Shown in pieces: positions 44,492 through 63,513 of a stretch of DNA of 64,000 nucleotides; position 1 is the stretch's first letter; every line of letters starts with the position of its first letter. The notes beneath the pieces are model-generated. The model did no database searches. It had not been told where the DNA came from and was given only the letters and a program-made list of their open reading frames with translations. A program made the position numbers and the translations under genes. This DNA is from Eubacteriales bacterium (GTDB taxonomy: Bacteria; Bacillota; Clostridia; Lachnospirales; Lachnospiraceae), in contig JAUNHA010000006.1 of the NCBI GenBank assembly GCA_030524135.1, positions 2,087 through 66,086 of the forward strand. Direction: 5' to 3'.

Positions 44492-44503
44492 CCCCCCCCC
44501 CCC
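44492..44503. repeat. C12 homopolymer tract
   Basis: 12 consecutive C residues, counted by hand, in non-coding remnant DNA. Confidence 0.9.
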
Positions 44504-44689
44504 ACGCAGACTTTGCACATTCCTCCATATAGAAAGTTCGTGCCTGCTCATCCGGTACACGTATCAAAATGCGGTAATGTGATCAATTTAAATTGCTCCA
44601 CACTGTGGAGCAATTTGGAAAGGTACAATAAATCATTTCACCGTTCCGGTGAAACTATCATATTCTCTGAAACACAAACTTGCCAACAG

Positions 44690-44840
44690 GTATTACCTAA
44701 CAAATTAGATGTGATAAAGATCCATGTTACAACCCAAGTTAAGCCCGATGAAAAGATTCTGAGTTTTTGCATGGAACCTCACTCGAAAGCAGAAATTGCG
44801 GAGCATTACGGATATAAAAACACAAATATTTTCACATCAA
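44690..44840 (+). pseudogene. second remnant of the same regulator-tail family
   Basis: ...TTQVKPDEKILSFCMEPHSKAEIAEHYGYKNTNIF... occurs inside the otherwise implausible ORF 44513..44911. Confidence 0.4.
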
Positions 44841-44844
44841 AAAA

Positions 44845-44896
44845 CCGGCGGTCGGAACACTCAGTATGCGTCCGATCCGCCGGATATTTTTATTTC
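44845..44896 (+). terminator. strong hairpin terminator, probably bidirectional
   Basis: CCGGCGGTCGGA...TCCGATCCGCCGG with one bulge, followed by ATATTTTTATTT. It abuts the stop of the convergent dioxygenase gene. Confidence 0.65.
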
Positions 44897-44907
44897 TTTG
44901 ATGTATT

Positions 44908-45675: not shown

Positions 45676-45693
45676 TCATTATCATCTCCATTT

Positions 45694-46158
45694 CTATTCA
45701 GAAATTTCTTTTTCGTACAGGACCCGGTCTTCATCCTTAAATACATTGAAGACCACCCGGTCAATTTCCGCCTCATGCTCCTCCAGAAACCGGCTTACCG
45801 TGCGCACGGCGATTCTTGCCGCCTCGTCATTCGGGAAATGAAATTCTCCAGTACTGATACAGCAAAATGCCACAGACCGGAGCCTTCTCTTCACACAGCA
45901 ATCCAGTACACTCCTGTAGCAGTTCTCCAGATCCTTTCGCAGACTGTCCGTAAGGTTCCCTGTGACGATTGGTCCTACTGTATGAATGACATACTTTGCG
46001 GGAAGATTATAACCCTTTGTCAGCATTGCCTGACCGACAGGCTCCTCATAGCGCTGACCATACTGGATCCGTTTACGGTTCATCTGATGGCTGCACTCCG
46101 CCCGCAGTTCGATTCCTGCCGCGCTGTGAATGGCATTCCCGACCCCTATCCGAATCAC
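45694..46158 (-). pseudogene. macro-domain ADP-ribose hydrolase gene lacking its 5' part
   Basis: Homology begins abruptly at ...NAIHSAAGIELRAEC... and continues through YVIHTVGP and ISTGEFHFP. An in-frame TAA lies two codons upstream of the track start. The expected GDIT...VDAIVNAAN N-terminal region is missing. Confidence 0.75.
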
Positions 46159-47956: not shown

Positions 47957-47978
47957 TCCTTTCCTCTGATTAACTTCT

Positions 47979-48140
47979 TTATGCTGCCTGTTCCTTACTA
48001 ACTGTCAAAAGTTCCTTTAGCGCTATCAACTCATCCGCTGACCATTCGCTTATCTGCTGCATGAGAAATTCAATTCGTTTTTTATCAAATTCATGCAGAT
48101 ATACATCTGAATCCGATGCACGGTGAATCATTGCCTCCAT
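47979..48140 (-). CDS. possible small ORF (53 aa) upstream of the recombinase
   Basis: MEAMIHRASDSDVYLHEFDKKRIEFLMQQISEWSADELIALKELLTVSKEQAA, preceded by the RBS AGGGGG. It is below the track cut-off and has no recognised family. Confidence 0.3.
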   Translation of the reverse strand: MEAMIHRASDSDVYLHEFDKKRIEFLMQQISEWSADELIALKELLTVSKEQAA

Positions 48141-48261
48141 AGTTTTAATCTGCCCCCTTTCAAACTTATGTAAGGCAAAAGGGAGCTTGCGCTCCCTTAA
48201 AGCAAGGATACCGTACCTCGTGCGAAAAGGCGAGGATGTCGATTTTACTGTAAGCCGATAC

Positions 48262-49041
48262 TCAGAACTTCATCGGCAACGCTGTCTTGGAGCTCGCCCC
48301 ATTGTAGATCAGGAACACCTGCATAAGGTATTTCTTACTTGCCGGAAACGAATTGCCGATAGCGGCAGCATCGCGGTAAATCTTCTGCGGGTCTTTCTCC
48401 CGGAGCTTCTTGACCAGACGCTTGCGGTTGTATTCGCCTTTATAAAGATCAATGAACTGGGAGAGACCCAGCATATTTTCTTTGCGGAAAGTGTTCGGCT
48501 CACCATCCCATGCTTCCAACAGAATGTTCAGCACTTCCTGATATTCCTCTATTCCAATCTTCTGGAAAATCTTAAAAGCGGTGCTGACGCAGGCAATGCG
48601 CCTGCACCCCAGCTCCTCGCCGTAGTCCAGCCGGAGGCCGACCGCCTCCGTTGCTCTCTGAAACGATATCACCACTGGGTCGCCCGCACAAATCAGTGCG
48701 CGGATTTTTGCCCCTGCCGTGAGTTTGGAAGATTCGCCGGTCTGCTGCGCAAAAAGCGTTGCTTCGTCGCTCTCTGTCATACCAAAATAGACCTTGCACT
48801 TAATCATCAGGTCTTCCCCGTGATTACGGCTCTTTCTGGCTGCAATGGTGTGCTGACCGTCAAAGACATAGTAGTGACCGTTGCGGAAGCTCACCTTTGG
48901 TTCGTTTGCAATATGTTCATTGAAGTTTTTAACGATACGATGTACTTTCTCCATACTCAATTCCCGCTGATAGGTCTCTCGCGGAATTTCCAGTTCCGCA
49001 CTGTTGATAGACATAATCTTATACTTTTGATTGCTGCTCAT
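48262..49041 (-). CDS. ParB/Srx-fold protein of the DGQHR/DndB/DUF262-like type
   Basis: 259 aa. The YQRE motif followed by VFDGQHTIAA compares with the YQR...DGQ(H/Q)R signature of that clade. Confidence 0.55.
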   Translation of the reverse strand: MSSNQKYKIMSINSAELEIPRETYQRELSMEKVHRIVKNFNEHIANEPKVSFRNGHYYVFDGQHTIAARKSRNHGEDLMIKCKVYFGMTESDEATLFAQQTGESSKLTAGAKIRALICAGDPVVISFQRATEAVGLRLDYGEELGCRRIACVSTAFKIFQKIGIEEYQEVLNILLEAWDGEPNTFRKENMLGLSQFIDLYKGEYNRKRLVKKLREKDPQKIYRDAAAIGNSFPASKKYLMQVFLIYNGASSKTALPMKF

Positions 49042-50023
49042 TCCAAAGCCCTCCCTTCTTTATTCTCCGAAAGTAATCAATGCCCTGATCGGCAAGCTGT
49101 TTTATTTTCGCTTTCCCTGTTCTGCTTCTCACATGAACCGGATAAGTCTCTCTGCAAAGGTTCCACCGGAAGATCATATCCTCAAGCGCGTCATTCATTT
49201 CATAAATCATACTGCCCTCTGTGGCACCCGCGACACCTTCCGAGTGAACCATTCCTTCGGAGATTTCCTGAATCAGTTTTCGACTGACATTGTGTTCTGG
49301 CTGTCGTGGATTCACATCCCTATCATCCACCGTCATCCCTTCTGTTTGAATACATTGGTTCTGACCGCGTCGCACAGTCTTAGGCAAACAAAGCTGCTCC
49401 ACCAACTCACTTCGTTCAATCGGCTCTGCACTAATAATCTCCTGTACTTCTTTTTCTGTCGGTTTAATTCTCCCGGACAGAATATTCTGCCGGATGCCGG
49501 GTGATACATCATCGGCAGCATCAACCGCATTTGCGAATACTTCAGCCCGGATCACGGTATTCTTTCCGATGTTATGCTCTCTGGCAATTCGCTCACAGGT
49601 TTTCTCACCGTTCAAGTTCCCAGATTGGGAACTTGATTTTGTTTCACTCTTACGGTCGCCGCCATGAGCGGCTTTTTCCGCTTCATACTGTTTCCCGATC
49701 AGATACTTCCTTTGTTCCAAAGTCAGGTTCCTTCGTCCAAGCTGATTCTTGCAAATCCAGGCAAACGCATCAAAGCGGTTGTCGAACGCTTTCTCGTGAA
49801 TGTGATAGGGAATCTCCGGATGCTTCAGTAAAATCTTGAAGCGATTATGACCGTCCACGATAATTCCTTCCCATACAATAATGGCGTTCAGGATTTCTCC
49901 ATCTGCCAGAATATTCTCTTCCAAAGTACAGAACTCCTCCTGCGTTATAGGCGGAATCTTCTGTTCAAACTCCGGATCAATTCTCATTTCATTAAATTGC
50001 GTTGCCATCTGCTTTCTCACCAT
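49019..50023 (-). CDS. ParB N-terminal-domain protein with central HTH
   Basis: 334 aa. IIVDGHNRFKIL box and an HTH around CERIAREHNIGKNTVIRAE. Confidence 0.65.
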   Translation of the reverse strand: MVRKQMATQFNEMRIDPEFEQKIPPITQEEFCTLEENILADGEILNAIIVWEGIIVDGHNRFKILLKHPEIPYHIHEKAFDNRFDAFAWICKNQLGRRNLTLEQRKYLIGKQYEAEKAAHGGDRKSETKSSSQSGNLNGEKTCERIAREHNIGKNTVIRAEVFANAVDAADDVSPGIRQNILSGRIKPTEKEVQEIISAEPIERSELVEQLCLPKTVRRGQNQCIQTEGMTVDDRDVNPRQPEHNVSRKLIQEISEGMVHSEGVAGATEGSMIYEMNDALEDMIFRWNLCRETYPVHVRSRTGKAKIKQLADQGIDYFRRIKKGGLWNEQQSKV

Positions 50024-50426
50024 CCTTCCCGATGGAAATCCGTCGGTTACTTCTGCCTGTATTCTCCTCCAGGTAATATCCCAGCTGAATCTTCACAGCC
50101 TCATCGATACCCCGCATCTGTCCCTTGCTGACTTTTCCGAGATAACGGATGATGCAGCATTTATCACAGGTATCCAGCTGCTCTGCCAGCACCGTTGAAG
50201 GGCGTTCCAGACCTTTTGCTTTTCGGATGTAATAATGGGTAGGCTGGCACCTCTTCTTTTCCGTCCTGGATGTCAGCGGTGCTACAGTAATCGTCGGCGA
50301 ATAGAAGTTGCCGACATCATTCTGTAAAACCACCACCGGCCGCACACCGCCCTGCTTTGACCCCACAGGAATACCGAGGTTAGCCAGATATAAATCACCC
50401 CGGCGGTAAACCCAGTCTTGTTTCAT
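49992..50426 (-). CDS. PemK/MazF family toxin-like protein
   Basis: Trimmed to ATG 50426, 7 nt after GGAGG. RGDLYLANLGIPVGSKQGGVRPVVVLQND...TVAPLTS is the classic MazF/PemK N-terminal pattern. Confidence 0.8.
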   Translation of the reverse strand: MKQDWVYRRGDLYLANLGIPVGSKQGGVRPVVVLQNDVGNFYSPTITVAPLTSRTEKKRCQPTHYYIRKAKGLERPSTVLAEQLDTCDKCCIIRYLGKVSKGQMRGIDEAVKIQLGYYLEENTGRSNRRISIGKDGEKADGNAI

Positions 50427-50529
50427 GTTCATTCCTCCAATCTCCATAATGTTTATATGGATAAAGGCTGCCGGAGAGATGTGTAAATGCTGTTTCCCGG
50501 CAGCGCTTTCTTTCAATATGGTTCCTCTG

Positions 50530-50870
50530 TACTTTTTCTTATTACCCCAAAGGTATAGGATTTCTCACGAGCGGCAGTGTGCTTCACTGCTCCATTGGAA
50601 TCTAACCACCCCGCCTTCATCATGGCCGGGCCGCGAATTACGGAAGTCTCATTGTCCCTGTCCGGTGTCAGCACCACCGCCGGTTGCAACCCGGCATTTG
50701 CTTTTGCGATACCGCTATCGCCCCAAAGGGCATCATGGCGTGCAGCCGAAGGCTCGACCGGACAGGATTGTACTCGGAGAATGAGTATTCAGTTTTCAAA
50801 GAGCCCGCATGGACTGTTTGTCCTGCTGATTTCATTGTAAAAAAACGCATTTGATTTTTTTATGACCTCA
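50530..50870 (-). other. GC-rich, hairpin-dense non-coding region (candidate structured RNA or DNA site)
   Basis: Hand counts give 57-62 % GC over 50581-50760, against 32-48 % on the flanks. There is a 9-bp long-range complement (50657-50665 / 50758-50766) and local hairpins at 50706-50721 and 50679-50695. No credible ORF is present. Confidence 0.35.
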
Positions 50871-50904
50871 TCCACAAAAAACTTGCGTCATCTGCAAATA
50901 TCAC

Positions 50905-51192
50905 TTAGAGATTCATCGCCATGGCTTTCAGTCCTTCCGAGATCTGCAGCAACGCTCCTCTAATATTTTCCTTTTCTGCTTTTTTCCCAAGGACGAGATA
51001 GTCCAGTGACACTTCAAAGAACACGGCAATCTCAACCAGTGCGTCAATAGATGGAGTACATCTTCCCGACTCCAGTCTGCTGATTCTGGAAAAATTGATG
51101 TTCAGTTCCTCTCCCAGCTGTTCCTGCGTAAGATTCCTTCCCTGCCTTAACGCCCTTAACCTCCGTCCAAATTCTGCTGCATCGTAATACAT
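50905..51192 (-). CDS. XRE family HTH regulator
   Basis: 95 aa. FGRRLRALRQGRNLTQEQLGEELNINFSRISRLESG. Confidence 0.85.
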   Translation of the reverse strand: MYYDAAEFGRRLRALRQGRNLTQEQLGEELNINFSRISRLESGRCTPSIDALVEIAVFFEVSLDYLVLGKKAEKENIRGALLQISEGLKAMAMNL

Positions 51193-51382
51193 ACTGTCTT
51201 CCTTTCCGCCCGCTGCGGATTGGGGTGAGATACATTGCCCGACAGTATGCCGCTTCCATCAAAGCCCGACATGGGTGCATTAAAGAAAGGGTACCGATAC
51301 TGCTCTTCCGAAAATGGAAACAGGCAATATTTGTATCCTCAGTCCTAATGCATGTCAGGCTTTCGATATTAATTTTTGATTT

Positions 51383-51452
51383 CACAAAAAATAAAAGACC
51401 ACTGACGAGGCAAACTCCTATCGTAATAGGAATTTCATCCTCGCCAGTGGCC
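51383..51452 (-). terminator. long-stem rho-independent terminator
   Basis: On the minus strand, GGCCACTGGCGAGG...CCTCGTCAGTGGTC (with an inner hairpin CCTAT-tacg-ATAGG) followed by TTTTATTTTTT. Confidence 0.7.
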
Positions 51453-51565
51453 TCTCATGTATGTCTGGTCAAACTCACTGGGCAAATCAGGTATGTGACC
51501 TGGAGATGGTCTTATGCAGTCTGTTTCACCTCAGCCATTCCGTCGTTATACCCATTCTGTTTTCA

Positions 51566-51805
51566 TTATTCGTGGGAATTATAAATTCCCGGTTCCTCCG
51601 CAACACATAAAATCTGCTCGCCAGCCGGAGCATAGATATCAAAACGATTGTGTCGCCGTCCCATAAAGGTTCTTACTGTCACCGCACGGCATCTGCTGCA
51701 CCGCAGCTTTATCATGCCATTTTTGTCTTTGTACCCCCGATTTAGCTTACCGCAGTTTGGACAATAAAAATCACAGGGTGTCCATAATTCTTCATATCCT
51801 GACAT
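51566..51805 (-). CDS. small zinc-ribbon protein
   Basis: Trimmed to ATG 51805 (RBS GAGGAGGAAA). Two CxxC pairs (CPNCG ... CSRC). It loosely resembles the Cys-rich KTR proteins of mobile elements. Confidence 0.55.
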   Translation of the reverse strand: MSGYEELWTPCDFYCPNCGKLNRGYKDKNGMIKLRCSRCRAVTVRTFMGRRHNRFDIYAPAGEQILCVAEEPGIYNSHE

Positions 51806-52063
51806 CACTTTCCTCCTCATATCCGGAATATTTTTCGTCCTGACAGAATAAGGGAAACAAAATCCGTCGGATCGTGATTGGAAGCCCGAATTCTAACATC
51901 AAACCGGTAGTTTTCCGTCCTGCTCAAGGCAGCCTGCCGGTTACTTTATCGGGCTTCAGCGCCTGTTGAACGACAGAGAAAAACAAAGAAATATTTGCAT
52001 TGCCTTCTGATTCTCACATTAAACATCAAACATCGCGAATAAGTCTTTTCTTCGCTTTCTCTA

Positions 52064-52092
52064 TTGACATTCCGAGAAGTTCATTTTATACT
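52064..52092 (+). promoter_or_regulatory. sigma-A promoter of the immR-like gene
   Basis: TTGACA (52064-52069), 17-bp spacer, TATACT (52087-52092). It is flanked by GAGAAGTT (52074-52081) and AACTTCTC (52104-52111). Confidence 0.6.
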
Positions 52093-52198
52093 TAGTGTAG
52101 TTAAACTTCTCAATAGCCATTATAAGCATGTTAGCTTCTCTTGTCAACACAATTAGAGATTTTTAACTACTCATTTTTTAGAAAAGGAGAATATTGCC

Positions 52199-52645
52199 AT
52201 GACGTTCGGAGAAAAAGTAAAGCAGGAACGAAAGAAACTGAACCTGTCGCAAGATGAGCTTGCTGCAAAAGCTTCCGTGTCCAGGCGCACCGTTACGTCC
52301 TGGGAAACTGATAAGGCATTACCGAGAACCAGAAAGGTTTACGAGACCCTGGCTGATGTACTCCAGGTACCTGCCGCCTATCTGATCAATGAAGATGATG
52401 CCTTTCTCATTGACGCCGGGGAGCAGTTTGGATACAGAGGGAAAAAGGGAGCAGAAAAGCTGATGGCCGAAATCACCGGACTCTTTGCCGGTGGTGAAAT
52501 GGCGGATGAAGATATGGATGCGCTGATGTTCGCCGTTCAGCAAGCGTATGTCGATGCAAAACGAAAGAATAAAAAATACACCCCAAAAAAATATCTCCAT
52601 GTTTCCGAAGGCGATAATCCGTCGCCCGATTCATCAAATAAATGA
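52199..52645 (+). CDS. XRE family repressor (ImmR-like)
   Basis: 148 aa. HTH KKLNLSQDELAAKASVSRRTVTSWETDK. It sits directly upstream of an ImmA-type protease gene. Confidence 0.85.
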   Translation: MTFGEKVKQERKKLNLSQDELAAKASVSRRTVTSWETDKALPRTRKVYETLADVLQVPAAYLINEDDAFLIDAGEQFGYRGKKGAEKLMAEITGLFAGGEMADEDMDALMFAVQQAYVDAKRKNKKYTPKKYLHVSEGDNPSPDSSNK

Positions 52646-52674
52646 TGAGCCGCGCGTAATAAGGGGGTGGGGCT

Positions 52675-53184
52675 GTGCGCCTGAATTCAAATGATAAAAT
52701 CATCCAAAAAGCAAACCGTCTCCTCTGCCGAGCCGGAAGCAGAGAGCCGCGGCACATCTGCCAGTTCCTCGGCATAACGGTTATTGAAGCGCCATTTAAA
52801 CAACAAAAAGGCGTTTATAAGGTCATTGAGAGGAACCGTTACATTTTTCTCAAGGAAGACCTGAATCCTGTCATGAAGGATATCGTTCTCTGGCACGAAA
52901 TTGGTCATGACCAGCTGCATCGCAAGGAAGCCACGCAGTTTCAGGAATTTAATCTGTTTGATATGACGACCAATCGCATGGAATACGAGGCAAACCTCTT
53001 TGCGGCACAGCTGGCACTGGACGAAGAACAGCTCTGGGAATATATCCTTCAGGGGATGGATGACGTCTCCATTGCAAAAGCCATGTATTCCGATACAAAT
53101 CTGGTTGCCCTTAAAGTCAGCATTATGTCCAGACCAGGGTATAATTTGCGGGTGCCGGAGCATCGGAATGATTTTTTGAAATGA
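52675..53184 (+). CDS. ImmA/IrrE family metallopeptidase
   Basis: 169 aa with the HExxH motif (WHEIGHDQLH). Paired with the upstream XRE repressor, as in ICEBs1 and phage immunity modules. Confidence 0.85.
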   Translation: MRLNSNDKIIQKANRLLCRAGSREPRHICQFLGITVIEAPFKQQKGVYKVIERNRYIFLKEDLNPVMKDIVLWHEIGHDQLHRKEATQFQEFNLFDMTTNRMEYEANLFAAQLALDEEQLWEYILQGMDDVSIAKAMYSDTNLVALKVSIMSRPGYNLRVPEHRNDFLK

Positions 53185-53193
53185 CATTCCTTT

Positions 53194-53221
53194 GAGGAGC
53201 CTTGACTGGCTCCTCTTTTTT
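53194..53221 (+). terminator. rho-independent terminator of the immR-immA pair
   Basis: GAGGAGCC-ttgact-GGCTCCTC followed by T6. Confidence 0.8.
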
Positions 53222-53289
53222 ATCGCAAATGACCGCTAAGCGGGTGACAGACATTCAGACATTTTGTGCAGATACCGTCTGCACAATTA

Positions 53290-53721
53290 TCAACCTAACA
53301 TCTGTATGTGATAGAGCTTCACTTTCTCCTCGAACGGCAGCCCCGGATCAATGCCGACTTCTTCCCACGTCACACCATACGGTGCCCCGCCATCTGTATA
53401 TCCAGCGATAAAGGCAAACCGATCATCGCAGTCCTTATATAACTCTGCCAATCGCTCCAGTTCTTTCTTCTCACGCTCCAACCGTCGTTGCCGGAGCCGC
53501 TGTTCTTCTGATCTCTTTATCTGATCCAACTGCTCCTGCGTGTAGTTGACACCTAATTCCTGCAAATCTTTAGCAGCAGTCACTGCATCAACATGAAAGC
53601 GTTCACGGTAATGCTTGTTCATCTTTTTCGGCGAACCAGTATAGGTGAGCAGCCACTGTTTTCCTTTTCGCAGACGGGCCTCCTTTCGCTCAGCCTTTGT
53701 CAGTTTCTTTTTCTTTGCCAT
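53290..53721 (-). CDS. hypothetical protein (basic N-terminus, coiled coil)
   Basis: 143 aa with RBS CAGGAGA. No family recognised. Confidence 0.55.
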   Translation of the reverse strand: MAKKKKLTKAERKEARLRKGKQWLLTYTGSPKKMNKHYRERFHVDAVTAAKDLQELGVNYTQEQLDQIKRSEEQRLRQRRLEREKKELERLAELYKDCDDRFAFIAGYTDGGAPYGVTWEEVGIDPGLPFEEKVKLYHIQMLG

Positions 53722-53854
53722 TTGCTAAATCTCCTGAATTTTATACTGGTAGCTGTATCCCCGCTTTCGTTATCTTAATTGTGCAAGCAGCTCTTGCACA
53801 ATTTTACCTGATCCGCGTCTGGATATTCCAAGCCATATAATAATTTTCTTAAAA

Positions 53855-55302
53855 TTATCGTTTTCGATATTTCCGTCCTTTCGTGGTACCGTTGTCCTCC
53901 AGCAGTTCAAGCTGCACCATGGCACGAAGCAATTCTTTTGTCCGGGTTTCCCTCACATCAAGAACCGCTACAATATCCGCTACATTATGCCATGCTCCAT
54001 CATTCAGGAAGTCCAGAATCTTATTATATTGCGCCTGTGTTTTGGCGGACACATTTTTTCTGGCGCTTTTTTTGTGAAAGAAAGCGTCAGAATCGTTCTG
54101 TCCGGATCAAACTGTTCCTCTATAATCGGTTCTGTCCAACCCTCATCTTCCCACATGTTAAAGATGTTCGGAACGCCGCTTCCGGCACGTTCTCCAATGT
54201 TGATAAGGTTGAACATTTTCATTAGTACCTTATTTCGAGGGTCAGATTCCCCGCCTCTGCGCATCTGTTCCTTTCCGGTTCGGATGTATCCGGGATTCGC
54301 AAAAACCAGCTTATCCGGCTCCTTACGGATCACAACACCTCGTACACCGTAAAAATCCGCGTTCGTGAGGCAATTCGCCAACGCCTCTCTCAGTGCTTTA
54401 TGCACTGGCGTGTCATCAATCCGGTCACCACCCTCCATTCGAAAAGGCACCTTCACATCCTTGATGAGCTTGTTATAAACCCGAAAATAGAAGTCGCAGA
54501 TATTTCCAGACCATTCCCCGGAACTGGATTGAAGGCGATCCGTCCAGCGAATTGCCGGATCTAACATCTCCCGGTAATCCAGAAAGTATTCCGGGAAATG
54601 CCGGACAATGTTATATTCGTTTCCGAACATCAACATACCTGCCGCTGTAGGATGCAGCCGCTTATCCTCCGACGAAACCGCTGCCGCCCCTATACTACGG
54701 AGGTATTCCTCATCGTTTAGTCTCTCAAAGGGATGGCCCGCTTTCAGCGTTCTATGCCTGTTTCGATAACCCTGAATTGTTTCTTTATTAAGGTCAGAAA
54801 GCTCTGCATCGTTCAGCACATCCATGTCTACCGTATTTTCTTCCTGATCCCGCAGCATGGCCTTAACCTGAAGCCTCGTGCATTTATAATCCCCGGAATG
54901 TATCCTTCGGTATGTGCCACCAAACAGGTCATTGTTGATATATACCGGCTTCTGACTTCTTTTTGCCCTTGGAACTTCAATTGCAATGATCACATCATCA
55001 TTCACTTCATAGGCCGTTACATTTGATTCCGACAGTAGATTAAGGCTTACCTTATTTTGGTTGTGCAGCAGATTCCACAGGTTATCCAGTAACTTCTCTT
55101 TATCTGCCGCTTTCAGCCCAGTGGGCTTCCAATGCTTATCATCCAACTCCTCAACGCCCAGAATAATTACTCCGCCATAGGTATTCGCAAAGGCAGAGTA
55201 GGTCTCCCAGATATCATTCGGAAGACCGCCTCTGGCCTTTTTCACTTCCCTGCGGTTATCTTCCTTGTATTTGTCAAATTTTTGAATATCAAATAACGGC
55301 AT
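53855..55302 (-). pseudogene. Schlafen/AlbA_2 + HATPase_c_4 + wHTH regulator-like ATPase gene, frameshifted in an A7 run
   Basis: ORF 54004..55302 covers the AlbA_2 region (...AFANTYGGVIILGVEE) and the HATPase region (REALANCLTNADFY...FANPG). ORF 53855..54052 is its wHTH tail. On the coding strand, an A7 run (T7 at 54067-54073 on +) separates the frames, and an 8th A would join them as ...FTKKSARKNVSAKTQAQYNKILDFL... Confidence 0.75.
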
Positions 55303-55494
55303 TGAATAGCCACCTCCTGTTATAGGACTTTTTTAACAAGTACTACGCCGTCAGATCAATCTTCTTCTCGACAATCCACTCAAACACACGGCTGCACTCA
55401 TCCGACAGCTCGTCTCGGAAAACATAACTTTGATGCCAGATTGATGATCACACTGTCACCACTCACTTTGTCATACAAACGGCTTCCCCAAAAG

Positions 55495-58005
55495 TCATAA
55501 GGGTTTTAAAGATAAATAATGACATAAGTCTAGTGCGAACATCTGCTTCCTTGCTACTGAATGCATTCCGGTCATCAAATCGCTTCTTAAAACAGCAACT
55601 AACCCGTTTCGATTACTATAAACGAAGCACCCCTGCATCAGTTGGCGAATAGCTTTTCTATCGTTGTTGATTAACACTTTCATTTTCAACGCTTGTTCAA
55701 TAGCCGAGCCAGCCGTCAGCTCTTCACTCATATAACTTGCAATGATTGGTGCCAATTCATCTGAAATTGGATATTTTCTAAAATATGCAGATGTAAAAGT
55801 TTTACGAGTATTATCCTCTCGCGCAATATAATCATAACTATCCACAAATGCCTTATCTTTTTCTTTGTGCAAGTCTGGTATGGTATTGTCTCTTAACGCC
55901 TCCACACATTTTATTACCGAGCTACACCTTCTTTTAAAATAGCCATTACCAATTTTATTCGCTCTCTTCAAATAGGAGATTAACTTATCGTACTCATTAC
56001 AATATTTAATCAATTCCATGCATGGCCGAGGCGTTCCCTGTGTACTAAAGGCCGAAACAACAAAAGGCCATATTTGCTGTGCAGTGAAGAATTGCGCATT
56101 TTGAAGAATACCTGCTTTATTAACACCCAGAGCAAACAAGTCAAGCAGAAAATCATCTATCGGCAAATCCAAGCGATTCTGCTCAAACCGAGTATTTGCA
56201 GATAGAACGTCTTGATTAAACTCTGCAGGTATCCCCGTTAAAGTTCGTTTTATATTCTGAATATCTATAGGTAACGCATTAGGATCATTAGGCGCTATTC
56301 TAACCGGCAATCCCTCCTTCCCGCCGCGATTCTTAAGCAAGTAGATACTATGAGCGTTTTCTAATGTCTCCACAAGATAACTAACATCGTTCTTAGTCGG
56401 AGGAATGATTGTCAGTTTCTCCAATAGTGCCACCCATTCAGGTTTATCATCTGGAATATAGGGCATTATTAAATACATATTGCGAAGATATCCAACTTTG
56501 TCTTCATCCGATTTGGAAACTGCAATTCGTCTTGACAAATCTTCTATAATTACTTCTCGGTCTCGAACAGTAGATTCAGGTGCGGGAATGTTTTTCAAAT
56601 ACGCCTTTAATTTTTTCCCTTGTGATAGAAGGCTAAAAAACTGGTAAATATCATTTGCCGTAGTAACCGTAATATCGCGAGAACATCCTTGACCTGCATG
56701 GAGACCATTCGCTCTCAGTGTTTGTAAAATAGTAAATTTATTTACATATGACAACAAATTTGCTTTTTGTTCTGCATTTGTGTTTTTATCTTTCCAAATA
56801 AAATCGAACTCGGGAGATCCTTTTGAGATTCCCGCCTTGAACTCTTTAAGAACTTCTGTGCCAAATTTATAAACATCAGATTGAATATCTCCCTCTTTAT
56901 ACATTGCCTGGATTCCCTTTGCTTGTACAAGACACGCTTTTATTACCAACTCAACAGAAGCTCCCAAAAGGCCAATTATCGGAGCATACTTTGTTTCTTG
57001 ATGCTTAGAACGACAAGCTGTAGGAATTGACAGTCCGTATAAGGCCAAGAGATAGGATTCGATTCCACCATACAAAATCGGAATCGCTTTACTTTTCATA
57101 AACTGCGGCATACAATCCTTCCCGTGGGTCCCCTCAAAACGGTCCGGGTCAATCAGGGAGAGGAACAGGTGGAAATCGTCCTCTTTTCCATTATGAGGTG
57201 TCGCCGTCAGGAGCAAAAAGTTCTTTGTAATGTTAGAAAGCAGTCTGCCCAGAGAAAACCTGCGTGTATATTTTATCTCGCCACCCCAGATGGTGGCAGA
57301 CATTTTGTGTGCCTCATCGCAGACAATCAAATCCCATTCCGAGATTTTTAGCTTTTCCTGTATAGCATCGTTTCTGGCCAGCTTATCCAGACGGCAGATG
57401 CACAAGTCCACTTCGTTGAACACATTGCCAGTGGCCGCAGATTCAATTCTGTCGTTGGTCAGAATATCAAAATGTAAATGAAATTTCTGGAATAACTCAT
57501 CCTGCCACTGCTCCACAAGGCTTCCCGGCGAAACAATCAGGCAGCGTTTTAGGGAGCCACGAGCGATCATTTCCTTGATGAACAAACCGGTCATAATCGT
57601 TTTACCGGCACCCGGATCGTCTGCCAATACAAATCTTAGAGGGAGACGCGGCAGCATATCCTGATAGACCGCAGAAATCTGATGCGGCAAAGGTTCTACG
57701 GATGAAGTATGCACTGCCAAATATGGGTCAAATAAATGTGCAAGACCAATACGATACGCCTCTGAAGCCAAACGCACCTGATCCCCATCTGCATCAAAAC
57801 TCCATGGAAGATGACTATCTTTTACCTGAATGCTTTCTTCATCTGCTCGATAGAGCAACTGTGTTCCGGGAACACCCTTGCTATTTTTGTATGTAATTTC
57901 TATCACATTGGTTCCATACCATTGGACGGCTACCACATTAACAGGTTCATTCCCCGCTATTCCAGTCAGATGGCTACCCACTGTAATATCTTCAAGTTTT
58001 GCCAT
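55495..58005 (-). CDS. chimeric ORF: RapA/SNF2-like helicase N-lobe (aa 1-298) fused to a 538-aa region of unknown function
   Basis: The N-terminus has a Tudor/SH3-like segment, motif I DDPGAGKT, motif II DEAH and motif III LLLTATPHNG. After ...DPDRFEG the SNF2 pattern stops, with no helicase-C motifs IV-VI. GC drops from ~60 % (57121-57180) to ~38 % (57061-57120) at the junction. Confidence 0.7.
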   Translation of the reverse strand: MAKLEDITVGSHLTGIAGNEPVNVVAVQWYGTNVIEITYKNSKGVPGTQLLYRADEESIQVKDSHLPWSFDADGDQVRLASEAYRIGLAHLFDPYLAVHTSSVEPLPHQISAVYQDMLPRLPLRFVLADDPGAGKTIMTGLFIKEMIARGSLKRCLIVSPGSLVEQWQDELFQKFHLHFDILTNDRIESAATGNVFNEVDLCICRLDKLARNDAIQEKLKISEWDLIVCDEAHKMSATIWGGEIKYTRRFSLGRLLSNITKNFLLLTATPHNGKEDDFHLFLSLIDPDRFEGTHGKDCMPQFMKSKAIPILYGGIESYLLALYGLSIPTACRSKHQETKYAPIIGLLGASVELVIKACLVQAKGIQAMYKEGDIQSDVYKFGTEVLKEFKAGISKGSPEFDFIWKDKNTNAEQKANLLSYVNKFTILQTLRANGLHAGQGCSRDITVTTANDIYQFFSLLSQGKKLKAYLKNIPAPESTVRDREVIIEDLSRRIAVSKSDEDKVGYLRNMYLIMPYIPDDKPEWVALLEKLTIIPPTKNDVSYLVETLENAHSIYLLKNRGGKEGLPVRIAPNDPNALPIDIQNIKRTLTGIPAEFNQDVLSANTRFEQNRLDLPIDDFLLDLFALGVNKAGILQNAQFFTAQQIWPFVVSAFSTQGTPRPCMELIKYCNEYDKLISYLKRANKIGNGYFKRRCSSVIKCVEALRDNTIPDLHKEKDKAFVDSYDYIAREDNTRKTFTSAYFRKYPISDELAPIIASYMSEELTAGSAIEQALKMKVLINNDRKAIRQLMQGCFVYSNRNGLVAVLRSDLMTGMHSVARKQMFALDLCHYLSLKPL

Positions 58006-58014
58006 AACATTGAG

Positions 58015-58023
58015 CCCCCCCCC
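58015..58023. repeat. C9 (G9 on the coding strand) homopolymer between the XRE stop and the helicase-chimera start
   Basis: 9 C residues counted by hand. On the minus strand the sequence reads GGGGGGGGG-ctcaatgtt-ATG, so the tract occupies the RBS position of ORF 55495..58005. Confidence 0.9.
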
Positions 58024-58029
58024 ACTGCT

Positions 58030-58263
58030 TTATTTTTGCGTTTCCTGAGACTCTGGTGGCTGATCAGGAATCAATTCCATGATGTCATCGAATGTACAGC
58101 CCAGCACTTTACAAATGCTTACCAGCGTATCTGTGTTTACATTTTCCCCACGGTTCAGCTTATTGACTGTATATGTGCTGATATTAGCAGCAGCGGCTAA
58201 ATCCTTTTTTTTCATATCCTTGTCTATCAGGAGCTTCCACAATTTTTTATAGCTTACGCCCAT
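58030..58263 (-). CDS. XRE (Cro/CI-type) HTH regulator
   Basis: Trimmed to ATG 58263 (RBS AAGGAGAA). MGVSYKKLWKLLIDKDMKKKDLAAAANISTYTVNKLNRGE... Confidence 0.85.
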   Translation of the reverse strand: MGVSYKKLWKLLIDKDMKKKDLAAAANISTYTVNKLNRGENVNTDTLVSICKVLGCTFDDIMELIPDQPPESQETQK

Positions 58264-58907
58264 ATCGTTCTCCTTTTTTCGCCGAGTAAGTGGACACATA
58301 CTACTCTACATTATACACATCCAATGGCGGAGAAGCAATATTTAAATTGAGCGAAAGCTCAATTCTTTTTAGTTTTATCACAACTGTTATCAAATGTACG
58401 CTATACACGACAACCACCACAACAACTCTTTTGCAAGCAGGGCATAGGTGCTACCTATGCGTTTTTGCTTGTTGGGGAATACCTCCCCAATCCCCTCAAA
58501 GTACAATGCCTTTGGCACTGGCGGCGCATCCGTTCCGGACGCTTTTTAAACATTCACTCCAAATAAAAAGCTGAGGTGTAAATCCCCAGCCTAATCAAAA
58601 ATATTGAAGTTGCCATCCTGAACTGAACCATTCAAAGAACACTTACTCGCTATCCCACTTCAGGTTTTCCCTATGAAATCTGAATATTCTCTGATCAATG
58701 CCACCGATCAAAGCTCTTCATATAATTTACACATCATAATATGTTTTTCAACATTTTCATCGTCTATCTTGAATCCGGCATCCAAACGTACCCGTGCGCC
58801 TTGTTATAGAGGTTCTGCTAGGATTTCTCGTACTCATTATCTTTTAGTTTCTTCATTATGTATGCTCTTTTAGGACTCTGTTTGTTTTCCCCTTTTTATC
58901 CTGTATT

Positions 58908-60111
58908 CTAAAGTATATCTGCATAATATCTTCTGTTGATATTAGAAAAAATCACTTTGGCTGGGAAAAGCTTCATTCCCATTGCTGCCATTCCAACAAC
59001 ACTACATGCCCATTCCCTTAATTCATTCGGAAGTCGAAAGCTTGTCGGTTCTCCATCCTTTAGAATTGTTACTATTGGAATGAAATTTTTGTACACCCCC
59101 ACCGATAATACATTAAAAGTTTGAGAACCTTCATGTAACGACAAAAGAGGTTGCTTTCCCGAATCAAAATATACCCTCCCGCCCCTTTTATTCAGAAATG
59201 ATTCTTCATCGAAGGGAATTACAGGCTCAATAGGCAATTTGTTTCTTCTGCATTCAAAATATCTTGCTGATTGCTCACAAGCAAACGCATTATAATATTC
59301 ACCTTGCATATCTATGTCAGATCGAATCTGTTCTGCAGATTCAAAATGATTCATAAAATTCAACAGAGCATTGAATGTAACCAAATCATCCGAATAAATA
59401 CCGGGCAGGTTGGTATAGTTCGCTCTGACAAGTGCGTTTCTGAAAGACCAAGCGTTCTCTGCAAAAATATCATTAGTAGCTGAAAAGCCGAGGGTTCTCA
59501 AATACTTGATAAAGAATACCGCTGTGGTTCTTGTGTTGCCTTCTCCGAAGATATGGATTTGCCATAACCTCGAAACAAAGACTGCAAGATGATGAATAAT
59601 TTCTTCCATCGAAAGTCCTTTGTAGCTAAAGTCTTTCTCCTGCGAGAAATCATATTCAAGGGTTGCTCTCAGTTCCGAAGCGCTGCCATAAAGGACAGTC
59701 GCTCCGTCAAGCACCCATTCTTTTTTGTGATATTGTAATCTCTTATCTTGCCTGCGTGTTTATAGATACCCTGAAACAGCTTTCGGTGGATAGAGATATA
59801 CTCGGGGAGAATGAAAAAGCAGTTTCCGAAAGTATCTGTGCGATACGGGATGATACCTTATCCGCTTCTTCTGTACGCTCGTCGTCCGACAAATGTGTCG
59901 GTCTTTCCTCATAATAGCTGTCTATGAGATTTTGCGCTTCTTTTATTGTAATTTTCCCCTCAATATTTTGAATGGCCGTATCAATCAAATATTGGGAAGG
60001 TTTCAGTCCGTCCACCGCCTGAAGTCCGATTGCCGTACTCCACGCATAGCCTTTGCTGAGTTTATCCGGCTCAGACTCCTTCAGATATTCCTTAAATGGG
60101 TCTTTATTCAT
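58908..60111 (-). pseudogene. Fic family (AMPylase-type) gene with two frameshifts and a non-canonical 3' end
   Basis: ORF 59743..60111 is the typical N-terminus (MNKDPFKEYLKESEPDK...AIGLQAVDGLKPS). ORF 58908..59714 carries the Fic motif HIFGEGNTRTTA. The segment joining them reads in a third frame: ...PEYISIHRKLFQGIYKHAGKIRDYNITKK... The shifts are at the G4 run 59804-59807 and the T6 run 59721-59726. Confidence 0.8.
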
Positions 60112-60137
60112 CTTATTTCCTTATTTTCTTTGCTTTT

Positions 60138-60857
60138 TTAATCCGTCAGCAACCTGCTTAGCAGTTGTTTTCTATTATTGATAAACATTTCCGTTATTTG
60201 ATAACTGTCCGTATCTTCATACGAGCAAGTATGCAGCTTTCCATCGTCAAATGTCAATATCTCTGCGTCCGGCAGACCTAACAAAATCGGAGAATGTGTT
60301 ACGATAAAGAATTGCGAACCTTTTTTCGCACATTCATAGATTTCAAGCAATAGCGTTAATTGTCTTTGCGGCGACAAAGCTGCTTCAGGCTCATCGAATA
60401 TATAAACTCCATCTTCCTTTAGCTGACTCTGTGCGATTGCAAGAAAACTTTCCCCGTGTGATTTTTCGTGATACTTTTCCGATGGGTGTTCAATATCAGC
60501 ATATTCTTCTTCCATAGTCGCTACATTATAAAAACTTTCCGCCCGAAGAAAATATCCCCATTTTGCTTTGCGATACCCTCTGCCAAGCCGCATTGCTTCA
60601 CACAGTTCCGAATGTGAGTCATAAGTAGAAAAGCTGTAATTTTTTGTGCCGCCTTCAGGATTAAATCCATAGGCTATCGCAATAGCCTCCAGCAATGTGG
60701 ATTTTCCACTTCCGTTTTCTCCGACAAAAAAGGTAACAGGCTTACTAAAAGTCAGCTTTTTCAGTCCCCTGATAGCTTCAATTGACCTTAAATAACTTCC
60801 TCGTTCAATTTTATTCCAATCAATCTCTACTCCCTGAACAAAAAGATTATTCATCAT
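60138..60857 (-). CDS. small stand-alone ABC-type (AAA_21-like) ATPase
   Basis: 239 aa. Walker A GENGSGKST, signature-like SHGESF, Walker B IFDEPEAALS and H-loop THSP. It overlaps the upstream WYL gene end by 11 nt. Confidence 0.8.
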   Translation of the reverse strand: MMNNLFVQGVEIDWNKIERGSYLRSIEAIRGLKKLTFSKPVTFFVGENGSGKSTLLEAIAIAYGFNPEGGTKNYSFSTYDSHSELCEAMRLGRGYRKAKWGYFLRAESFYNVATMEEEYADIEHPSEKYHEKSHGESFLAIAQSQLKEDGVYIFDEPEAALSPQRQLTLLLEIYECAKKGSQFFIVTHSPILLGLPDAEILTFDDGKLHTCSYEDTDSYQITEMFINNRKQLLSRLLTD

Positions 60858-61837
60858 CTACCACTCCATTTATCGCTATCGACTCCCGAAGCATATTCTT
60901 ATACTGTTCTTTCAAGCTCTCCGGTGCAAGTATCTGCACCTTGCCGTTAAATCCAAACAGCCAGCCGAAGAATGTAGGACTTGCCGATACTTCGGTCTGT
61001 ATCCGGAACGAAGTCATATCATAGGCAAGGGTGGTAACATCTTCTCCGAAACGGTCAACCATCGTTTTCATCAGGCTGTTATCACAGCGCAAGTCTACCT
61101 TAACCTTTTCTCCGGGGAACATAAAGAATACTTCTTTCGTAAAGTTCTCAATATCAAAATCATCGGGCATTGGAAGAACTATTTTTTCCAGCATATCCGG
61201 TATCCCTGCAATGCGATCCACTCTGAAATTGATAACCTTTTGTTTCTTTTCGGAATAACCAATCACATAATAATAATCGCCGCTCCAAAGAAGCTTATAT
61301 GGACTGAGCTTATATACTTCTCCCTTGTTTTTCAGTTCTTTCTTCTTGAGTCCAGTGTAATCATAATACTGGAAGGAAATCTGTTTCCCAGTATTAATGG
61401 CATCGTTTATGGTGTCAATGATGTAGTAAATTTGCTCATTGTCCGGCTTAATTCGATTGACAACATAATTATTACGCTTGAGCTTTTCTACCTGTCCCCG
61501 GACTTGTCATCGTATGTATCTTCTCAATCAGCGCTTTGCTTTTCTTATCGGTAATCACTCTTGAGGACTCCACAGCGTCAATCAGCAGCTTTAACTCCGG
61601 CAATTCAAACTGCCGGCTTGCCACAAAATACTTACACTGCGTAGAATGAATAACCACTATATCCATTCCGAACTCCTGCAAGGCGGCAATATCCTTTGCA
61701 AGCGTTACCCGATGTGTCGATATATCATATTCATTCTTCAAAATATCCAATATTTGATTTGTAGTCAGAGTGTGTTCCTCATCGGTTCGTTCCTCTAAAA
61801 TTTTCTTTATATATAAAATTCTCGGTTTTACTTCCAT
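60847..61837 (-). pseudogene. WYL-domain transcriptional regulator gene, frameshifted
   Basis: ORF 61472..61837 is the wHTH N-terminus. The frame of ORF 60847..61266 stays open upstream to about 61490 and encodes ...QVEKLKRNNYVVNRIKPDNEQIYYIIDTINDAINTGKQISFQYYDYTGLKKKELKNKGEVYKLSPYKLLWSGDYYYVIGYSEKK... The frames meet at the C4 run 61496-61499. Confidence 0.75.
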
Positions 61838-62112
61838 TTTATATCCTCTCCGATTATCTATTCCTCTATGCCTAATGCTCCAAATAATTCACTTTCAATT
61901 TTACTTATCTGCTCTATCGGTATCGCTGTCTTATCTCTCATAACAACGGTACGCTCATAATCATCAATTCTTTTTACCGCAGGTCAGTAATAATCTAAAT
62001 TTACTTGAGGTATTTTTTTGTGTCAATCTCTTGACCTATTTAAAGTATACAGGAAGCTTTCATTTACACTGGAGAAACAAAGATTCCATCAGCATTTCCC
62101 AAACATAAAAAA

Positions 62113-63513
62113 CTACTCCAAATCCTCCTTCGGCATGATCCGAAACTCCTGTATCAGGAACAGAACCGACAGCGCAAAGGACAGCAGATCCGTCACCGGC
62201 TGTGCATAGGCGATTCCCTCCACTCCAAAGAACCGGGGCACGAGCAATAACAGCGGAATCAAAAACACAATCTGCTTTGAGAAAGATAAAATTGCTCCTT
62301 TTGCCACTTTTCCAATGGATGGGAAAAATGTCGCGCAGCATATCTGGATTCCATTTAAAAAGACACAGAACAAAAATACACGCATAAACGGAATCGCAAA
62401 CTGAAAATACAGGGGATCCTCATTGGCACCGCCGAACAGAGAGAGAATCGGCTGCGGAAAGATCTCAAAGATCACCCAGACTGTTGTGGAAATTACCACT
62501 GCCGTCTTCAAGAACAGCTTCACCGTCTCCCGCACACGCCGGAACTTTTTTGCCCCGTAATTATAGCTGCAGATCGGCTGCGCCCCATTGATCAGTCCAA
62601 TGATCAAAGCAATGAAGATGACATTAACCTTCATAACAATTCCGGCTACCGCAATGGGCGTGTCCGCTCCATAAACAGATTTCTCTCCATATATACGCAG
62701 GACGTTATTCAGCGTAACCTGGACGATCACATTGGAAAACTGGAAAAAAAACGAATTAAATCCCAGCTTACAGATCAATAATACATCCTTTCTCCTTGGT
62801 AGAAAATCTGCCAAAGAAAAATGAACTGACTGAAACCTTGGAAAGTACGCTACCAGTATCAGCGCGGAGATCACCTGACTGATCACCGTCGCCCACGCTG
62901 CACCTGCGATTCCCCAATGAAACACAAAAATAAAAATCGGATCCAGAATCGTATTTAACACCGCTCCCACCACAATGGCCATCATAGAATAGTTCGGACT
63001 TCTGTCTGCCCGGACGAGCGGATTGATTCCTGTTGAAAAAAGCAAAAACGGAATCCCCAGAGATGTAATTCCCGCATATTCCATTGCGTAAGGCAGGATA
63101 TTATCCGTTGCGCCGAACACCCGAAGCATTGGTTCCAGGAAAGCACGGACAAGTATGCAGATGATCACTCCGCATATAACCAGCGCTCCTGCGGCACTTC
63201 CCGCTATTTTCCTCGCTTTTTCCTCCTCTTTTCCACCCAGCTCCAGATTAAATCCGGCAGCAGAACCAAGTCCCACCATAAGCCCGATCGCCATGCAGAC
63301 CGTTGTCAGCGGAAATGCTACCGATGTCGCAGCATTTCCCAGCTTGCCCACACCCTGACCGATAAAAATCTGGTCGACAATATTGTAAAGCGCATTCACC
63401 ACGTTGGCAATGATTGCAGGAACCGCCAGTGAAAGCAGCAATCCGCCCAGCGGCTTTGTTCCCAATGGATTTGTCATTTCTTCTGATCTAGACATTCTCA
63501 TCTCTCCCTTCAC
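62113..63513 (-). CDS. MATE family efflux transporter
   Basis: 466 aa with 12 predicted TM segments. Its start overlaps the marR-like stop by 4 nt. Confidence 0.85.
   Translation of the reverse strand: MKGEMRMSRSEEMTNPLGTKPLGGLLLSLAVPAIIANVVNALYNIVDQIFIGQGVGKLGNAATSVAFPLTTVCMAIGLMVGLGSAAGFNLELGGKEEEKARKIAGSAAGALVICGVIICILVRAFLEPMLRVFGATDNILPYAMEYAGITSLGIPFLLFSTGINPLVRADRSPNYSMMAIVVGAVLNTILDPIFIFVFHWGIAGAAWATVISQVISALILVAYFPRFQSVHFSLADFLPRRKDVLLICKLGFNSFFFQFSNVIVQVTLNNVLRIYGEKSVYGADTPIAVAGIVMKVNVIFIALIIGLINGAQPICSYNYGAKKFRRVRETVKLFLKTAVVISTTVWVIFEIFPQPILSLFGGANEDPLYFQFAIPFMRVFLFCVFLNGIQICCATFFPSIGKVAKGAILSFSKQIVFLIPLLLLVPRFFGVEGIAYAQPVTDLLSFALSVLFLIQEFRIMPKEDLE

Follow-up and report, generated by a model that had tools for sequence, protein, structure and literature searches.

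The stretch of DNA considered here, 64,000 nucleotides (nt) of contig JAUNHA010000006.1 from the metagenome-assembled genome (MAG) of a Eubacteriales bacterium (hereafter, the window), carries on its minus strand, at positions 55495..58005, an open reading frame (ORF) of 836 amino acids (aa) that begins with ATG, as verified by an ORF check of the window. The encoded protein was deposited in GenBank as MDO4265340.1, from a Eubacteriales MAG, with the annotation 'DEAD/DEAH box helicase'. Its N-terminal part does contain the SNF2-type motifs I-III (DDPGAGKT, DEAH and TATP), and Pfam recognizes SNF2-rel_dom at aa 126-292 together with ResIII and DEAD, all of these being N-lobe domains only; past aa 292, neither Helicase_C nor NOV_C nor any other Pfam domain was found. 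The two RecA-like lobes with motifs I-VI that make up an SNF2 (SF2) helicase are thus not both present in the ORF, and past aa 296 it consists of an unrelated all-alpha family. This agrees with a preliminary description of the window, in which a switch from motifs I-III to unrelated sequence devoid of a C-lobe had been noted.

The Hma system, reportedly described by Payne et al. in 2021, comprises HmaA as the helicase, HmaB as a DUF1156 methylase and HmaC as a DUF499 ATPase. HmaA is the helicase that acts with the DUF1156 methylase and the DUF499 ATPase in this system (bioRxiv 10.1101/2024.01.29.577857), which has been renamed the Type-1 BREX-related (BR) system (PMC12839542). Residues 1-294 of the window ORF align to positions 1-294 of the 1176-position PADLOC profile of HmaA (E 3.9e-136), and the PADLOC models of other SNF2 defence helicases, DrmD, BrxH and DpdE, score far below HmaA on this part. 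With the N-terminal part of HmaA from L013 as the tblastn query (the prefix L denotes loci fetched for comparison), only aa 1-295 were matched in the window. At the nt level, homology to hmaA of L012 (87% identity) spans 58405 to 57118 and ends there. The stump is free of stop codons with its reading frame whole, and its comparison with L012 gave a dN/dS ratio (omega) of 0.04 at a dS of 0.67. Judged from these alignments, the ORF begins as a bona fide hmaA and ceases to be one at about residue 295. Just upstream of the stump is a gene encoding an HTH_26 regulator of the Cro/C1 helix-turn-helix (HTH) type; the intact operon of L013 likewise begins with an HTH_26 gene, and homology to L013 spans 58199-58277. 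The region of the window gene presumably holds the promoter now driving the fusion.

The remainder of the ORF, from Met299 (codon 57111-57109) to the stop codon, differs from the helicase part in its content of G+C (GC), both overall and at third codon positions (GC3; Table 1). The hand counts given in the preliminary description, 36/60 GC at 57121-57180 and 23/60 at 57061-57120, were right, as was its remark that GC climbs again past the stop. The purine-rich site that it placed upstream of Met299 is present as GGGAAGGA. A search with the Met299-to-stop sequence recovered 173 homologues, nearly all of them 530-550 aa in length at 98-100% query coverage, without any Pfam domain or informative name, and in a 32-sequence alignment all homologues start MP(Q/K)F(M/L)K at the position of Met299. 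The earlier proposal that this cassette is an independent gene with a lost separation from the helicase fragment is borne out by these stand-alone homologues, mostly 530-545 aa in length, whose first residue aligns with Met299. The cassette is thus a whole protein of a family that exists on its own, and neither a broken piece nor part of a helicase. A divergent helicase C-lobe, which the preliminary description had allowed for, was rejected, given that the cassette is all-alpha, lacks any Helicase_C signal and has stand-alone homologues.

Table 1. Features of the fused ORF and the adjoining genes, with positions in the window
Feature	Position	Strand	GC (%)	GC3 (%)	Remarks
HTH_26 regulator gene (Cro/C1-type)	58030..58299	minus			Pfam HTH_26 E 1.9e-21; just upstream of stump
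hmaA stump (helicase part), codons 1-296 of Hma/Type-1 BR SNF2 helicase	57118..58005	minus	46.3	47	N-terminal domain and motifs I-III only
Probable deletion junction, ACGGGAAG	57118..57125	minus			overlap of hmaA and leader homologies in base-by-base alignment with L012, L008-L011 and L037-L039
Retained native leader of 536-aa gene	57112..57125	minus			ribosome-binding site (RBS) GGGAAGGA at 57123-57116, 4-nt spacer
Full family member (Met299 to stop), 538 aa plus stop, former last gene of operon	55495..57111	minus	38.2	33	AT-rich; stand-alone family of ~540 aa
N-terminal helical domain, aa 1-178 of 538-aa protein	56578..57111	minus			HEPN-like topology, predicted
Rx4H motif RANGLH	56698..56715	minus			R133...H138 of 538-aa protein, R431...H436 of 836-aa ORF
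Spacer past stop, 192 nt	55303..55494	minus	44.8	39	no recognisable Hma remnant; contains orphan frame 55343-55447
Schlafen AlbA_2 + HATPase_c_4 gene (next gene after spacer), 432 aa	54004..55302	minus	46.5	50	Pfam SLFN_AlbA_2 E 1.8e-12, HATPase_c_4 E 7.5e-11

Intact relatives and the junction

Near relatives of the two parts of the ORF were found in operons of the same kind. Those of the cassette directly follow a 1134-aa HEPN_Swt1/DUF499 gene and two DUF1156 genes, and the nearest relatives of the stump are in operons comprising HTH_26, hmaA, two DUF1156 genes and DUF499. Three contigs, L037-L039, each carry the full arrangement: hmaA, encoding an uninterrupted protein of 1167 aa with ResIII, SNF2-rel_dom, Helicase_C and NOV_C, followed by DUF1156 genes of 923 and 743 aa, a HEPN_Swt1/DUF499 gene of 1134 aa, a terminator and a 536-aa gene, the product of which in L037 shares 91.4% aa identity with the window cassette. 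The uninterrupted helicase that the preliminary description expected from a comparison of the junction with related genomes was thereby found. A natural split of HmaA into ORFs of ~515 and ~633 aa, suggested by L012, L013 and the length distribution, was rejected in view of the same uninterrupted 1167-aa gene. Within the window, tblastn with HmaA-C, the two L037 DUF1156 proteins and the L037 DUF499 protein revealed no other Hma remnant in the 64 kb; a full HmaA (N-lobe, Helicase_C and C-terminal NOV_C/restriction endonuclease), a DUF1156 methylase (HmaB) and a DUF499 ATPase (HmaC) are all missing from it.

The point at which the two homologies meet could be followed base by base. With L008-L011 and L037-L039 (88%), homology covering the 536-aa gene plus its leader spans 57125 to 55504, and hence overlaps the hmaA homology in ACGGGAAG, a microhomology of 5-8 nt in which ACGGG is identical in both kinds of relative. 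The leader in the window corresponds to the last 14 nt upstream of the ATG (ACGGGGTGGATAAT) in both L008-L011 and L037-L039. Ahead of the 536-aa gene, these relatives have a GC-rich hairpin of 9 bp and a T-run, GTGCCAGCC-TGATTCT-GGCTGGCAC-TTTTGTTTT; the window retains only the last 14 nt of the intergenic region between hmaC and the 536-aa gene, RBS included, and the terminator hairpin is gone. By L037 coordinates, 11,117 nt are missing from the window. The five bridging codons (THGKD-C) are in frame and stop-free, so that an ORF finder reports a single 836-aa 'helicase'; the prior for an in-frame join by deletion is about one in three. Comparison of the cassette with its relatives gave a dS of 0.59, close to that of the stump, and an omega of 0.07; the similar dS of both halves, coupled with the low omega, points to a shared history and to a deletion too recent for the stump to have decayed.

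Taken from these comparisons, the fusion very probably arose when one deletion removed ~11.1 kb from within an anti-phage operon of the Hma (BREX-related) type. The ancestral operon would have consisted of an HTH regulator gene, hmaA (encoding a ~1167-aa SNF2 helicase-nuclease), genes for two DUF1156 methylases and a HEPN_Swt1/DUF499 ATPase, an intrinsic terminator and the 536-aa accessory gene. Illegitimate recombination at ACGGGAAG would then have joined hmaA codon 296 to a point 14 nt before the accessory ATG, with loss of the HmaA C-lobe and nuclease, the two methylases, the ATPase and also the terminator. With the terminator gone, the hmaA/HTH promoter would now transcribe the accessory gene directly, and the native 538-aa protein is probably still made by internal initiation at its own RBS, the 836-aa protein being a possible by-product with a helicase part unable to work. 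A promoter scan near Met299 returned no site above chance. The Hma system in the window appears to be dead, a remnant only. Two points weigh against this account. The direct ancestor is not in hand and its closest relatives are ~12% diverged at the nt level, which leaves the exact length of the microhomology uncertain; and L012, used for the hmaA side, and L037, used for the cassette side, are separate contigs.

Three other origins for the fusion were weighed. A selected architecture, offered in the preliminary description as a genuine new fusion, would have the helicase N-lobe recruited as a sensor or anchor and the 836-aa protein functional as a whole. The intact, stop-free frame of the stump and its low omega against L012 are in keeping with this, HEPN domains are known to be fused to SWI2/SNF2 helicases of restriction-modification (R-M) systems (PMC3710099), and a distant member of the cassette family, P0338, likewise has an N-terminal stump, in this case of an AlwI restriction enzyme. 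However, the exact 836-aa sequence was found on one indexed contig and in the source MAG, and it is the sole fused member among the 15 listed of the 101 in its 90% cluster, the other 14 being 325-536 aa; none of the best 120 homologues of the cassette is longer than 597 aa. Moreover, the break is situated inside the conserved SNF2 ATPase core, just past motif III, such that the fragment would be unable to hydrolyse ATP productively, the join is a microhomology at which the downstream gene kept its own RBS, and the low omega would mainly record history before the deletion. A selected fusion is accordingly regarded as quite improbable. More improbable still is a chimeric assembly of two MAG regions, scarcely credible despite the origin of MDO4265340.1 from a MAG and the further broken genes in the island: an independent Logan assembly of SRR24915827 spans the junction with 4411 nt at 100% identity to the window, the 5-8 nt shared at the join are far under assembler k-mer sizes, and both flanks run colinearly into the same island.

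The preliminary description preferred capture, by which a mobile AT-rich effector gene would have been inserted into hmaA or have replaced its 3' part, by analogy with module swapping. Homology among family members from different contexts does start and stop within a few bases of the ORF, the gene is always AT-richer than its neighbours, and it occurs in many unrelated operons and between insertion sequence (IS) elements. But the nearest intact relatives already carry the gene downstream of hmaA, as the last gene of the same operon and in the same orientation, the 14 nt before its ATG are native leader from the HmaC-536 intergenic region, searches of the window turned up neither a displaced hmaA 3' end nor any further Hma fragment, the cassette is without flanking repeats or recombinase sites, and a single deletion accounts for everything; capture is very unlikely. 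At the 3' end, homology to the relatives stops at the stop codon, with ...LSLK* in the relatives and ...LSLKPL* in the window, and a tblastx search of the spacer against all fetched loci gave nothing under E = 2 except the identical contig L007. The 35-codon frame described earlier within this spacer does exist, but its reading as the displaced original 3' end did not stand, as it lacks similarity to HmaA, DUF1156, DUF499 or any fetched locus. It was rejected as a gene end on its length as well, which is at chance level, and for want of a start codon other than a GTG at codon 21 that is not usable; the 192-nt spacer also contains a 63-codon open run, a length reached in 340 of 2000 shuffles.

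The favoured explanation, a deletion between two genes of one operon, makes the fusion itself a matter of ordinary genome decay and an annotation trap: with a helicase stump plus an unrelated gene deposited as a helicase, defence-system finders would miscount. It also provides a base-resolution record of how a defence operon decays, in which one deletion removes methylases, ATPase and nuclease together and the appended accessory genes survive. Such joint loss of methylases, ATPase and nuclease is a safe way to lose a restriction system.

Other features of Hma operons were observed among the fetched loci. The terminator-like hairpin (9-bp GC-rich stem and TTTTGTTTT) between hmaC and the 536-aa gene is at 3920-3957 in L008 and at about 9950-9986 in L037, only ~16 nt before the RBS of the 536-aa gene with no space for a promoter between, and normal expression of the accessory gene may depend on terminator read-through. 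In L014 (10001-13529), hmaA is internally deleted (aa ~304-582 gone) and a DUF1156 gene is cut at about residue 208. In L035 (240-3579), hmaA stops at residue 290 and is followed by rve and AAA_22 transposition genes, which we take to be IS21-like; the 290-aa product is on 15 contigs. These other gut-metagenome Hma operons have decayed independently.

The family of the 538-residue protein

An exhaustive profile search of 1.84 billion representatives identified 247 clusters (50% identity) at E <= 1e-3, nearly all of ~530-545 aa. The view expressed in the preliminary description, that the cassette belongs to no recognised family, stood, searches of Pfam, PADLOC, NCBIfam, PHROGs and PDB sequences having yielded no match. 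Against PADLOC v2.0.0, with its HEC and PDC candidates included, the window protein and two distant members had zero families at E up to 1, and profile searches of PDB sequences with the family returned noise only. Neither PLSDB nor INPHARED contained a DNA or protein match, and so there is no evidence for a plasmid or phage origin.

Members of the family are AT-rich wherever they occur. In five unrelated contexts, the GC3 of the family gene was 25-39% vs 44-77% for its neighbours, including L008 (30% vs 54%), L006 (39% vs 45-60%), L028 (25% vs 46-52%) and L030 (33% vs 57-77%). The AT-richness is intrinsic to the family, and the GC step within the 836-aa ORF is inherited from the old boundary between HmaC and the 536-aa gene, moved beside hmaA by the deletion; the step was not created at the junction, as the family is AT-richer than its neighbours in every context examined. 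Comparison of L006, L008, L015, L028 and L030 with window positions 55504-57125 showed nt homology extending from 2-14 nt before the ATG to the stop codon, with the GC3 of the family gene always 10-40 points under that of its neighbours. The gene behaves like an ORF-sized mobile cassette, and no repeats or recombinase that would explain its movement were seen in these five loci or the window.

With respect to location, the family gene is the last of the operon in Hma systems (L037-L039 and other loci). In the type 1 BREX locus of L023 (89-16269), the order is BrxC ... PglX, a 354-aa gene without a Pfam match, the family member, PglZ and BrxL. Elsewhere it follows HsdR-HsdM-HsdS and precedes GmrSD (L024), follows a type I R-M system with Abi_alpha and T5orf172 in an integrase island (L030), follows a Dcm-HaeIII-Dcm R-M system (L020), or, in Lactobacillus delbrueckii (L028), comes after a ResIII/Eco57I pair that has GmrSD and a type I R-M system alongside. 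The recurrent same-strand place in or next to unrelated defence operons that marks a defence-operon accessory gene was thus found, the exception being some loci in which the gene is between IS elements. A role as an obligate fifth component of Hma was rejected, given ten genome loci in which a family member is present and no Hma gene lies within 10 kb of it. On this pattern of gene neighbourhoods, the family recurs as an appendage of modification-based defences. The distant member P0338 (801 aa; L040 8001-10406), with the motif RAKALH, follows ~268 residues in which positions 1-100 of the AlwI restriction-endonuclease profile are found, in an island of ABC-ATPase gene pairs; it constitutes a second case of a restriction-gene stump before a full-length family member.

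The Rx4H motif RANGLH to which the preliminary description had drawn attention is present in the cassette and invariant in the 32-sequence alignment. Among 82 sequences at 22-48% identity to the window protein, R133, A134 and H138 are conserved in 99%, 98% and 99%, respectively, and are among only 17 positions conserved to at least 95%. E54, located in helix 43-65, is acidic in 81 of the 82 sequences (Glu in 76, Asp in 5). An Rx4-6H is expected 0.86 times by chance in this protein and one was seen; the presence of the motif alone says nothing, and it is its conservation across the aligned sequences that is telling.

HEPN domains consist of four helices in an up-down arrangement, often with an insert separating helices 2 and 3; their motif closes helix 3 or opens the loop that leads to helix 4, and at least 16 HEPN clades are linked to R-M systems (PMC3710099). 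An AlphaFold model of the N-terminal domain (pLDDT 89.4, pTM 0.87) has predicted helices 9-28, 43-65, 113-134 and 145-162 and a helical insert at 67-105. R133 is placed by this predicted model at the end of helix 113-134 (helix 3), and H138 in the loop leading to helix 145-162. Of the features expected of a HEPN domain, the Rx4-6H and the acidic residue of helix 2 are therefore found in the family, and the four-helix core with its insert and the position of the motif are found in the predicted model only. The PDB entries matched by Foldseek with the best probability, and the only ones for which both probability and TM-score were appreciable, are HEPN domains, viz. sacsin (3o10, p 0.51), TT1696 (1ufb, p 0.44, TM 0.61) and AF_0298 (2hsb, p 0.41, TM 0.61), and the top-probability match in BFVD is a phage 'HEPN domain-containing protein' (p 0.30). 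On this predicted structure, a HEPN fold for the N-terminal domain is modestly favoured. It is conceivable, at a little under even chances, that the accessory protein would belong to a HEPN-type clade of RNases, new, metal-independent and linked to restriction, and that it would serve as an effector of backup defence or abortive infection in the manner of PrrC. Its candidate catalytic residues would be R133, H138 and E54, and the RNase would fire when the neighbouring modification-based defence is overwhelmed or inhibited.

Several observations count against an RNase of the HEPN type. The residue after the Arg, usually polar (N/D/H) in HEPN RNases, is Ala134, conserved in 98% of the sequences. 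All of the Foldseek matches have E >= 0.7 and a probability <= 0.51, none of them significant; there was no Pfam or PDB profile match linking the family to a known HEPN; and hhalign against the HEPN_Swt1 domain of HmaC, with a thin template profile, gave a probability of 0.2. The C-terminal ~360 aa are without a fold match and all-alpha in the model, the full-length model being all-alpha with pLDDT 77 and pTM 0.50 and likewise without a match in a fold search. A competing interpretation accepts the same deletion but takes the ~540-aa family to be a non-catalytic partner (sensor, scaffold or regulator), an anti-anti-restriction factor or an enzyme of new fold. It draws on the lack of a significant HEPN comparison, on the invariant Ala in place of the usual polar residue and on the two thirds of the protein that match no fold, which include the conserved P217, W226, D242, W348, P363 and D528, and it is a serious possibility, if one that falls somewhat short of even. 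It does not readily accommodate the ~99% conservation of the Arg, the His and the acidic residue of helix 2, a motif placed where the HEPN description puts it, HEPN domains as the top-probability structural matches in two libraries, and a genomic context that is the commonest for bacterial HEPN genes (PMC3710099).

If the HEPN interpretation is extended to all contexts, the family would be an unrecognised HEPN-type RNase clade that provides Hma/BR, BREX and type I/II R-M systems with a portable backup effector as their 'last gene', which the adjacent restriction complex would keep latent and which would be orphaned here under its partner's promoter. This broader proposal is tentative and rather doubtful; if true, the window is a natural experiment on whether such an effector is tolerated without its guard. 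Either way, the family is a compact one that accompanies restriction-type systems of at least five kinds and is absent from the domain and defence libraries searched, and with three candidate catalytic residues in ~540 aa it merits follow-up over the fusion.

The island today and comparison with known systems

The gene next downstream of the fusion, on the same strand, encodes the Schlafen AlbA_2 + HATPase_c_4 protein of Table 1, and Schlafen + HATPase proteins form a class of widespread backup effectors beside BREX/BR cores (PMC12839542). The locus would hence be one of two orphaned accessory effectors without an accompanying restriction system. Positions 44000-62000 form a defence island on an apparent integrated element, with a large serine recombinase (46073-47956), a PemK/MazF toxin (49992-50516) and an ImmA/IrrE peptidase and HTH pair (52199-53184); MatE transporter genes are at 40088-41503 and 62113-63513. 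The same kinds of neighbours (Peptidase_M78, HTH_19 and PemK) were seen in L001-L006, with no nt homology to the window.

Upstream of the HTH_26 gene, a Fic/PDC-S72 gene at 58908-60111 (minus) is broken and chimeric. ORF 59743-60111 corresponds to positions 1-107 of the PDC-S72 profile and the first 104 aa of ORF 58908-59714 to positions 134-237, with an A-run at the break between the two; the last 170 aa of ORF 58908-59714 belong to an unrelated ~290-aa family without a Pfam domain, making it a second ORF of the 'stump plus foreign C-terminus' kind less than 3 kb from the first. A WYL-type regulator at 60847-61837 (minus) is apparently split, ORF 60847-61266 having the WCX domain that forms the C-terminal extension in such regulators and ORF 61472-61837, ~205 nt from it and without a Pfam match, resembling the N-terminal HTH part. 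The hmaA stump, the Fic chimera and the split WYL regulator amount to three broken genes in ~9 kb of the defence island. Between the latter two, at 60138-60857 (minus), is a gene encoding a 239-aa ABC ATPase of the AAA_21/AAA_15 type with partial matches to the AriA, PtuA and GajA-like models of PADLOC. Only the ATPase motifs of the two termini are covered, and the gene may encode a defence ATPase that is minimal or has undergone internal deletion.

Of the known systems, the closest to the locus is Hma/Type-1 BR itself. Residues 1-294 of the window ORF are a near-perfect start of the HmaA profile, near relatives of both halves are in complete Hma operons with a HEPN_Swt1-fused DUF499 ATPase, and an HTH gene is upstream as in L013. 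The window differs in having only 296 of ~1167 HmaA codons and neither methylase nor ATPase, and would thus be a dead remnant. The accessory gene, for its part, resembles the defence genes that are embedded in or appended to such operons, among them Hma-embedded candidates such as HEC-08, a DUF3644 HEPN (bioRxiv 10.1101/2024.01.29.577857), and the 'auxiliary and backup effectors' of BREX/BR systems (PMC12839542). Like these, the family gene is a single same-strand accessory gene, located within operons of the Hma, BREX and R-M kinds or terminating them. Its Rx4H is conserved, and the neighbouring Schlafen + HATPase gene is in the listed class of backup effectors. Unlike genes of the HEC-08 type, it matches no PADLOC v2 model, HEC and PDC included, and no Pfam HEPN family, it is much larger (~540 aa) with an all-alpha C-terminal region of ~360 aa, and in Hma its gene follows hmaC and is not situated between hma genes.

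Similarities also exist with the anticodon nucleases PrrC and RloC and other HEPN clades linked to R-M systems (PMC3710099), given the linkage of the family to R-M loci, an Rx4-6H with essential-looking Arg and His and, by analogy, a proposed logic in which a latent RNase would be freed when restriction fails. In contrast to PrrC/RloC, the family is without an ABC ATPase domain and without detectable sequence similarity, and an Ala, not a polar residue, follows the Arg. Finally, the fused ORF has in common with the module swapping of polymorphic toxins a conserved N-terminal part followed by an unrelated C-terminal part of different composition. It differs from them in that orphan cassettes, immunity genes and a conserved pre-toxin junction motif are all absent here, and what joined the two parts was very probably a one-off microhomology deletion between two genes of one operon.

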